From: an uncultured Clostridium sp.
Lineage (GTDB): Bacteria; Bacillota; Clostridia; TANB77; CAG-508
DNA length: 64,000 bases
NCBI GenBank assembly: GCA_948468045.1
Contig: CAOKGO010000006.1
Coordinates: forward strand, 3,372-67,371
Reading direction: 5' to 3'
In this document: positions 40,147 to 40,858 of the stretch, piece by piece
Layout: every line of letters starts with the position of its first letter
How positions within the stretch are numbered: the stretch's first letter is position 1
The notes under the pieces: model-generated
Seen by the model: only the letters and a program-made list of their open reading frames with translations
Database searches by the model: none
What the model was told of the DNA's origin: nothing
Made by a program: the position numbers and the translations under genes

Positions 40147-40626
40147 TTAATTCTTATTTTTTAATAGCTGATTTTTAATTGAAATAATATCTGGAAAAAC
40201 AATTTTATTATATCCTTTTTCTACTAAATTCAATACTTTATTTGCTTTCATTTGTATTTCTTTATTAAATTTTTCATTTACTATTACATCTCTGTTTTGC
40301 TTTATGTATTTTTGCATTATATATTGTTCCGTTGTTGGAAACATATTTTGTATTAAAAAAGCCTTTTTTTCTCCTTCTACATATCCAAAAGCAATTGTAT
40401 CTACTACTCGTGTTCTTTCAATTTTTTTGTTATATATTTTTTCATATTTTTCTAACTTACTACTAATTGGTATAAACCATATTAAATTTTCATATTTTTT
40501 GTCATTAAAACAATAAAAACATGGCCTTTTATTTCCATTTTCTTTGTTTTTACACAATTCTTTATCTTTTATAAATTCAAAAAATTCATCTTTTATAAAA
40601 TAGAATTTTCCCTGTTCTACTTTCAT
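40147..40626 (-). CDS. toxN: ToxN/AbiQ-family endoribonuclease toxin (type III toxin-antitoxin)
   Basis: 159 aa; the KFYFIKDEFFEFIKDK...NKRPCFYCF...NLIWFIPISSKLEKYEKI pattern matches ToxN/AbiQ (FY.I...Y.EYL..FD...RP..G....YF.PLSSPK.KH). Confidence 0.65.
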   Translation of the reverse strand: MKVEQGKFYFIKDEFFEFIKDKELCKNKENGNKRPCFYCFNDKKYENLIWFIPISSKLEKYEKIYNKKIERTRVVDTIAFGYVEGEKKAFLIQNMFPTTEQYIMQKYIKQNRDVIVNEKFNKEIQMKANKVLNLVEKGYNKIVFPDIISIKNQLLKNKN

Positions 40627-40687
40627 ATTTCACATCCTTTTATTTTATAGAAAAAGAGAGTTATCTTTAAAAAAATAACCCCCATTA

Positions 40688-40795
40688 TTTGTTCATTAGG
40701 CTTTTTGTTATTCGCACCCTAATTAGCGAAACATATTTGTTCATTAGGCTTTTTGTTATTCGCACCCTAATTAGCGAAACGTATTTGTTATTACT
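40688..40795 (-). ncRNA. Candidate type III antitoxin RNA: tandem 47-nt direct repeats (2.3 copies) immediately upstream of toxN
   Basis: atttgttcattaggctttttgttattcgcaccctaattagcgaaaca appears twice plus a partial third copy, same strand as and 5' of the toxin, as in toxI/toxN. Confidence 0.5.
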
Positions 40796-40858
40796 ATAAT
40801 AGCATAATTTTGCTAAGTTGTCAATTTTATTTTATCCATTTTTTCACGTTTTGTTACA

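Follow-up and report, generated by a model that had tools for sequence, protein, structure and literature searches.

Organization of the Locus

In the window, by which we mean the whole 64,000-nt stretch of DNA analyzed here, we found on the minus strand a locus that comprises, in the direction of transcription, a sigma-70-type promoter at the start of a short repeat array (cptI), two and a bit tandem copies of a 48-nt unit, an intrinsic-terminator-like hairpin, a ribosome-binding site, and an intact gene (cptN) for a 159-aa protein. Tandem repeats, a palindromic terminator, and a toxin gene, preferably with a promoter at the repeat start, are the criteria given by Blower et al. for type III toxin-antitoxin loci (PMC3401426). 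All of these elements are present here, in agreement with the type III architecture put forward in the original prediction for this DNA.

Identity of the Toxin

The cptN gene (40147..40626, minus strand) is full length with an ATG start, and its product is predicted to be a sequence-specific endoribonuclease. The protein contains the three motifs that had drawn attention to this open reading frame (of the KFY.I, RP...F, and PISS.KxxKY types), namely KFYFI (residues 7–11), RPCFYCF (34–40), and IPISSKLEKY (52–61). The motifs had been read as the signature of the ToxN/AbiQ family; in the CptN family, however, these positions are columns that vary little or not at all, and therefore the claimed signature is that of CptN.

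Among the NCBIfam models, a single one matched the protein, the equivalog model NF047359 (“type III toxin-antitoxin system CptIN family toxin”), which scored 183 bits (cut-off 90, E 2.8e-54) over all of its positions (1–150 of 150). The sole significant relative with a solved structure is CptN of Eubacterium rectale (PDB 4RMO), which was matched over residues 7–151 (E 3.6e-27), the identity being 39% in a MAFFT alignment and 34% in a structural alignment. An AlphaFold2 model built on 35 homologues (mean pLDDT 90.8, pTM 0.86) also had 4RMO_A as its best PDB match in Foldseek (TM 0.84/0.86, rmsd 2.6 Å), and the next matches, to CcdB and MazF, were far lower (TM 0.42–0.48). The type II toxins MazF, Kid, and CcdB resemble the protein in core fold at low similarity (TM ~0.45; see also PMC4627078), and the similarity to MazF in the PDB sequence search was not significant (E 0.17). 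Unlike CptN, these toxins have protein antitoxins and lack upstream RNA repeats.

A protein search returned 754 homologues, the few named ones of which are labeled CptIN family toxins. One PHROG of unknown function matched the toxin (E 9.6e-24), and a search of a phage genome collection with the toxin protein gave no match, hence no evidence of a phage-borne copy. CptN homologues are also rare on plasmids, being found in 8 of 72,556 records at 32–49% identity. The gene is under purifying selection, as indicated by dN/dS values of 0.14–0.25 against orthologues at 60–89% identity.

Repeat Array and Predicted Pseudoknot

The cptI array, the putative antitoxin, occupies 40686..40789 on the minus strand and consists of 2.17 copies of a 48-nt direct repeat in an ungapped tract of 104 nt. 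It begins with AAC, followed by unit 1 (40739..40786), unit 2 (40691..40738), and a partial third copy, AAAUA (40686..40690). Both complete units, taken in the register of the family, were recognized by the covariance model R1 described below (58.8 bits, E 1.8e-14 for unit 1; 55.1 bits, E 2.3e-13 for unit 2), and the model had no other match in the window. Unit 2 differs from unit 1 only in having U for C at unit position 6, which lies in the 5′ tail and leaves the pseudoknot the same.

The array stands directly 5′ of the toxin open reading frame on the same strand, as had been noted earlier, and its end lies 60 nt from the ATG. Rather than the 47 nt originally assigned, the period measures 48 nt, and the bounds shift by a few bases. 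Tandem Repeats Finder (TRF) reported 40686..40793 with a period of 48, 2.3 copies, 96% matches, and a score of 202. When the array was compared with itself at an offset of 48, the core block agreed at all but one position (56 of 57), whereas offsets of 44–47 and 49–51 gave background only (29–39 matches over ~105 positions). The tandem repeat is far beyond chance. Published CptI repeats measure 40–48 nt (PMC3401426), and the suggestion that the repeat length represents a new variant can accordingly be set aside.

The open reading frames that overlap the array are trivial (36 aa or shorter). In a search of the whole window against Rfam at the gathering threshold, no RNA family was found for the cptI repeats. 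With E values up to 10 around the locus, again no repeat family appeared, and the sub-threshold matches that fell elsewhere are attributable to chance.

Written in the register of the family, the unit reads AAAUAYGU-UUCGC-UA-AUUAGG-GU-GCGAA-UAACAAAAAG-CCUAAU-GAAC. In unit 1 (minus strand), the predicted stem 1 pairs UUCGC (40778..40774) with GCGAA (40763..40759), and the predicted stem 2 pairs AUUAGG (40771..40766) with CCUAAU (40748..40743). The 5′ strand of stem 2 sits in the loop of stem 1, which is the layout of an H-type pseudoknot. A 10-nt A-rich loop, UAACAAAAAG (40758..40749, 7 A), lies between the 3′ strands of the two stems, and the pseudoknot is flanked within the unit by the predicted single-stranded tails AAAUACGU (5′) and GAAC (3′). 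The original prediction had proposed folding one unit in search of a pseudoknot, and such a fold is indeed predicted and is supported by covariation.

The pseudoknot was read from the sequence and then tested on an alignment of 48 distinct units from related loci. In this alignment, 82.4% of cells were paired, compared with 29–48% when the partners were slid by 1–3 columns, and 11 of the 13 pairs showed changes on both sides. The covariation score was 0.439 vs. 0.171 in shuffles, and none of the 500 shuffles reached it. Stem 2 differs completely between clades and yet remains paired, as in AUUAGG/CCUAAU, AUUAGA/UCUAAU, CCUAC/GUAGG, CCUGC/GCAGG, and GUCAC/GUGA. These compensatory changes across relatives support the prediction of an H-type pseudoknot with an A-rich loop. 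A nested minimum free energy (MFE) fold of the leader was not used as evidence for an RNA fold, because its z-score was only −1.85 and a pseudoknot cannot be represented in it.

The most conserved unpaired bases in the 48-unit alignment are AAAU at the start of the unit and UG just after stem 2, and judging from this conservation, they are natural candidates for the toxin contacts and the cut site. The base that precedes the conserved AAAU is C here and A or U in other clades. Using the E. rectale cut as a guide to the precise bond cleaved here was considered unsafe, given that this base varies and that the adenine-reading residues of the toxin are not conserved.

Promoter, Terminator, and Ribosome-Binding Site

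The sigma-70-type promoter (40796..40824, minus strand) has a −35 box TTGACA (40824..40819) and a −10 box TATTAT (40801..40796), separated by a 17-nt spacer with a TG extension. It agrees with the consensus at 11 of 12 positions, and no other site in the region is as good. The first AAAU of the array follows the −10 box at a distance of 9 nt, and transcription, beginning about 7 nt past that box, would probably start near 40789, the first base of the array. Of the 14 closest relatives (L002–L014 and L021), 13 have the pattern TTGACA-17-TAxTAT at the same place, 9–10 nt from the first AAAU on its upstream side; in the exception, L008, the contig ends before the −35 box.

Between the array and the toxin gene lies an intrinsic-terminator-like hairpin (40651..40683, minus strand) with a 12-bp stem (GGGGGUUAUUUU / AAGAUAACUCUC), a UUUA loop, and a trailing UUUUU, the hairpin proper spanning 40683..40656. 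A terminator at this place had been named as something to look for. One terminator-like site was found in the region vs. 0.2 expected, and the hairpin is part of both the MFE and the centroid folds of the leader. An equivalent hairpin with a T-run (at or below −5 kcal/mol) was found in 52 of 67 related loci, compared with 2 of 67 shuffled controls. The terminator is kept in position and not in sequence, as its stem differs between loci. It is presumably leaky, and we infer read-through into the toxin gene. A ribosome-binding site, AAGGA (40635..40639, minus strand), can be read 8 nt before the ATG.

Repeats and Toxin in Related Loci

We scanned one genome per species and obtained 80 related loci, all from metagenome-assembled genomes of uncultured gut Clostridia, the closest being 97% identical. 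In 66 of these 80 loci, TRF detected an array in the 300 nt that precede the toxin, with periods of 46–50 nt (mostly 48) and 2.1–3.1 copies. The covariance model R1, made from the 48 distinct units, placed units just upstream of the toxin and on its strand in all 80 loci, at least one in each and two in nearly all, and it also recovered units in loci missed by TRF and in a truncated contig. A conserved toxin gene that had lost its repeats, which was named beforehand as an outcome that would speak against the prediction, was therefore not encountered.

Among the 64 more distant loci (below 90% identity), most, namely 48, have two non-identical repeats that are structurally compensated. Within single loci of the sister clades, the divergence between the two units has reached ~77% identity, with the pseudoknot kept by compensatory changes.

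Chromosomal Context

The window has a uniform G+C content of 27% and a strong strand bias. The neighbors of the locus are core genes, with a plsC-like gene, cmk, and rlmN downstream and dnaJ and a 611-aa open reading frame (46772..48607) upstream. In four related genomes (L002 and L004–L006), cptIN occupies the same site, between a block of DUF6320, a 428-aa open reading frame, and an alpha-beta hydrolase on one side and rlmN (85–95% identical) on the other. In two more (L001 and L003), rlmN also lies directly downstream and the upstream block was not matched; in L001, the contig ends before the block. The shared site across relatives argues for vertical retention and against recent acquisition.

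All told, five to six related genomes of different species have kept cptIN at a single place in the chromosome.

It is the interval between cptN and rlmN alone that varies. It measures ~100 bp in L001, L002, and L003, holds a 65-aa and a 406-aa open reading frame in L004, and in the window contains a 242-aa open reading frame of unknown function with its own promoter. Searches of the neighboring 242-aa and 428-aa open reading frames against Pfam, NCBIfam, and PHROGs gave nothing useful. The original view of the locus as part of an accessory stretch thus holds for the cptN–rlmN gap and not for the surroundings, which are core genes at a site shared with relatives.

Active-Site Residues and Family Assignment

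In our judgment, the locus is very probably a complete chromosomal CptIN-family type III toxin-antitoxin system. Every feature of CptIN membership that can be examined by computation was found, with the exception of the active-site residues, for which the picture is mixed. The active site of E. rectale CptN includes a Ser-Ser/Thr-Arg triad, Tyr104, and Asp81/Ser85, the last two of which read the scissile adenine (PMC4627078). In the protein of the window, S55 and S56 align with S51 and S52 of E. rectale CptN, Y107 aligns with Y104, and the invariant R34 aligns with R30. Unlike in E. rectale CptN, a lysine (K57) stands in place of Arg53, and in the alignment with 4RMO, equivalents of Asp81 and Ser85 are absent, the aligned positions being a gap next to Glu and a Lys, respectively. 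The cleavage specificity may therefore differ from that of E. rectale CptN.

These differences could also be taken to mean that the locus derives from CptIN and no longer works as a toxin-antitoxin pair, either because the toxin has been inactivated or because it serves another RNA-processing role with the repeats as substrate. A purely selfish module would not usually stay at a single chromosomal position in different species, as this locus does, and that too would fit such a history. However, every member of the clade has these substitutions, and homologues carry either Lys or Arg at position 57. Moreover, all family-invariant residues are kept. Conservation was read from two alignments, one of about 26 homologues plus 4RMO and one of about 35 homologues, and the residues invariant in homologues and present here include F8, R34, P35, C39, W50, P53, S55, K60, Y61, D76, the FLIQxMFP segment (90–97), and K127; Y9, F40, and S56, likewise present, are conserved in at least 90% of sequences, if not in all. 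With the open reading frame at full length and under purifying selection, and with the promoter, the near-perfect repeats, and the terminator intact, we regard the loss of a working pair as very unlikely.

The original prediction had assigned the locus to the ToxIN/AbiQ family (PF13958), as an abortive-infection system with a novel 47-nt repeat, a reading that we now hold to be extremely improbable. The protein does resemble the Pfam ToxN model weakly along its full length (E 0.0047, residues 7–142 on model positions 2–134), in keeping with the known, distant kinship of the ToxN and CptN structures (PMC4627078), and the layout of repeats, terminator, and toxin is common to all type III families (PMC3401426). 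The PF13958 match, however, reached only 17.5 bits, below the gathering score of 25, and the CptIN model scored about ten times higher in bits. ToxN/AbiQ chains appeared neither in the PDB sequence search (E up to 10) nor among the 50 best Foldseek matches, CptN (4RMO) being the best solved structure for the toxin, and the 48-nt unit is inside the published CptI range (PMC3401426). A PADLOC search with the toxin (E up to 10) and five neighbors matched no family. The ToxN/AbiQ family assignment was therefore rejected, on the sub-threshold PF13958 score, the 183 bits of NF047359, and the best match to 4RMO by both sequence and fold.

Lastly, we give almost no credence to the idea that the repeats are a cis-acting leader only (an attenuator or stability element of the toxin mRNA) from which no trans-acting antitoxin is released: repeats that precede both a terminator and the toxin on one transcript, as 5′ leader, would fit attenuation as well, but the conserved, covarying pseudoknot resembles the solved trans-acting CptI RNA (PMC4627078), a single E. 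rectale repeat on a separate plasmid neutralizes its toxin (PMC4627078), and nearly all of the 80 loci have at least two complete units with AAAU junctions, which an attenuator would not require.

Comparison with Characterized Systems

The assignment as a CptIN system agrees with the published ranges for the family. CptIN loci have been described with repeats of 40–48 nt (mean 44.8) in 1.9–3.4 copies (mean 2.4) (PMC3401426, Table 2) and toxins with a mean length of 149 aa, and all 33 of the 33 members were chromosomal, mostly in Firmicutes and Fusobacteria (PMC3401426). The locus in the window, with its 48-nt unit, 2.2 copies, 159-aa toxin, and chromosomal location in Clostridia, falls within these ranges.

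The closest characterized system is CptIN of E. rectale (Rao et al., 2015; PMC4627078), likewise chromosomal in a Clostridia host, with a toxin that is homologous over the full length and with a promoter, about two tandem repeats, a terminator, and the toxin in the same order. E. rectale CptI is a 45-nt H-type pseudoknot with a one-base first loop and an A-rich 9-nt second loop; the second loop forms an A-minor twist, and the single-stranded tails enter the active sites of the toxin (PMC4627078). The pseudoknot predicted here shares the H-type layout with a first loop of 1–2 nt, a 2-nt junction, single-stranded tails, and an A-rich second loop of 9–10 nt. The complex from E. rectale is a 2:2 heterotetramer with a 3′ cyclic phosphate on each processed unit, and its CptN kills Escherichia coli, from which a single repeat rescues (PMC4627078).

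The RNA of the window differs from E. rectale CptI in that the unit has 48 rather than 45 nt, the added length residing in the 5′ tail and in one further base of the loop, and there is no recognizable sequence identity between the two RNAs beyond the A-rich loop and the AA(A/G)U start. In addition, E. rectale CptN cuts after A (GUUGA/AAGUUU; PMC4627078), whereas the base before the junction AAAU is C here.

More distantly, the order of repeats, terminator, and toxin is shared with ToxIN of Pectobacterium atrosepticum and Bacillus thuringiensis and with AbiQ/antiQ of Lactococcus. In these systems, the toxin processes the repeat RNA into pseudoknot inhibitors and the terminator sets the ratio of RNA to protein (PMC4627078, PMC3401426). 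Their toxins belong to a distantly related fold class (PMC4627078), but to a different family, with the Pfam ToxN score below threshold and their structures outside the top fold matches. In the characterized systems, ToxI units are shorter (34–36 nt) and the complexes are heterohexamers (PMC4627078), and ToxI pseudoknots are stabilized by triplexes, in contrast to the A-minor twist of CptI (PMC4627078). Abortive infection has been demonstrated with ToxIN and AbiQ and not with CptIN (PMC3401426, PMC4627078).

Proposed Mechanism and Biological Role

The following steps are modeled on the characterized E. rectale CptIN and on the ToxIN paradigm. A single transcript would start at the array. The terminator would halt most transcription, leaving the repeat RNA in excess, while read-through would yield a little CptN. 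CptN would then cut the precursor at the conserved single-stranded junction, either within the AAAU motif or beside it (...UGAAC/AAAUA...), releasing 48-nt pseudoknots with 2′,3′-cyclic phosphate ends. The processed RNAs would stay bound across two toxin active sites and so form a closed, inactive ribonucleoprotein. If transcription stops, or the RNA decays faster than the protein, free CptN might cleave cellular or phage RNAs, resulting in growth arrest. Cleavage, toxicity, and RNA neutralization have been shown for the CptIN loci of E. rectale, C. catus, and R. torques (PMC3401426, PMC4627078).

Candidates for the biological pay-off are abortive infection, stabilization of the chromosomal region, and stress-induced stasis. 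ToxIN, AbiQ, and TenpIN abort phage infection (PMC3401426, PMC4627078). Among the CptIN loci that have been assayed, no protection against coliphages was seen in E. coli (efficiency of plating ~1; PMC3401426, PMC4627078), and one stabilized a plasmid (PMC3401426, PMC4627078).

It is also conceivable, although we think it rather unlikely, that the CptIN branch of gut Clostridia is a long-term, vertically kept chromosomal resident with a different cleavage specificity or with a role in host physiology instead of addiction or abortive infection. The site next to rlmN across species, where the rlmN proteins are 84.6–86.7% identical to that of the window, is in line with such residence. The lack of equivalents of Asp81 and Ser85, together with the C before the junction, is the ground on which cleavage specificity or role could differ. 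The diverged repeats in sister clades would amount to a pair of different antitoxin isoforms for each toxin, a situation that published surveys report for tenpIN and not for cptIN.

Implications

The locus very probably adds one more well-formed example to a family that was described in 2012 (Blower et al., PMC3401426) and solved structurally in 2015. The toxin can be named by the current protein models of NCBI. The cptI RNA gene, on the other hand, would go unannotated because Rfam lacks a CptI family, and the alignment and the model built here recover cptI in every related locus. The 80 loci provide a ready comparative set for co-variation between toxin and RNA. As far as host biology is concerned, the locus flags a short variable region of the chromosome, between cptN and rlmN.

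Sequence variation among cptI units

According to a 2025 survey (PMC12283969), the toxIN and cptIN antitoxins reported so far consist of nearly perfect repeats, and non-identical antitoxin repeats are regarded as a trait of tenpIN. Among the related cptIN loci of gut Clostridia MAGs L016-L080, in which the array lies approximately 50-180 nt 5' of the toxin gene (e.g., L035:2826-2921), we found pairs of cptI units less than 90% identical within the same locus in 48 of 64 loci, with a median within-locus identity of 77% across all 64. The paired units of one locus carry compensatory changes in stem 2 of the predicted pseudoknot, such as CCCUAU..AUAGG vs. 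CCCUGC..GCAGG. The two units in the window are identical at 47 of 48 positions.

Seven loci have further matches to the cptI covariance model directly 3' of the toxin stop codon and on the toxin strand, at L059/L061:3489-3580, L074:3437-3528, L077:3484-3578, L078:3484-3577, L079:3484-3530, and L080:3492-3538. Their position suggests a putative second, tandem cptIN locus in these genomes.

CptN homologs in plasmid and phage sequence collections

No cptIN locus was recorded on a plasmid in the 2012 census that defined the family (Blower et al., 2012, PMC3401426). We identified CptN homologs (32-49% identity), annotated as hypothetical proteins, on eight plasmids, including the 12-kb NZ_CP075963.1 and NZ_CP075965.1 of Clostridium perfringens, NZ_CP048628.1 of Megamonas funiformis, and five others. 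The window toxin (40147-40626, minus strand) also matches phrog_33519 (E 9.6e-24), a PHROG family without assigned function, and a tblastn search with the toxin retrieved no homolog from 50,697 deposited phage genomes. Therefore, members of phrog_33519 may derive from prophages or divergent phages.

Genomic neighborhood of cptIN

Between 27.8 and 51.9 kb of the window, ORFs of at least 90 aa lie almost entirely on the minus strand. Across 1-64000, 31 of the 32 2-kb blocks show negative GC skew, the value being approximately zero at 60-62 kb. G+C content is uniform (23-32%), and one tRNA (2086-2157, minus strand) is the sole Rfam match at gathering score in the 64-kb window.

Upstream of cptIN, on the minus strand, is a three-gene block (40859-43678) comprising a 187-aa DUF6320 membrane protein, a 428-aa ORF without a family match, whose end the DUF6320 gene overlaps by 14 nt, and then an alpha/beta hydrolase (Abhydrolase_3). 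The trio is conserved as a block 5' of cptIN in L002 and L004-L006, and therefore these genes probably form an operon.

Between cptN and rlmN lies a 242-aa minus-strand ORF (39284-40012) with its own promoter-like site (TTGACA-17-TACATT; 40102-40074, minus strand). This ORF has no match in Pfam, NCBIfam, PHROG, or PADLOC, and is missing from all six syntenic relatives (L001-L006); the gap is approximately 100 bp in L001-L003, and other ORFs, of 65 and 406 aa, fill the interval in L004. The cptN-rlmN interval appears to be a small, variable site of insertion adjoining the toxin gene.
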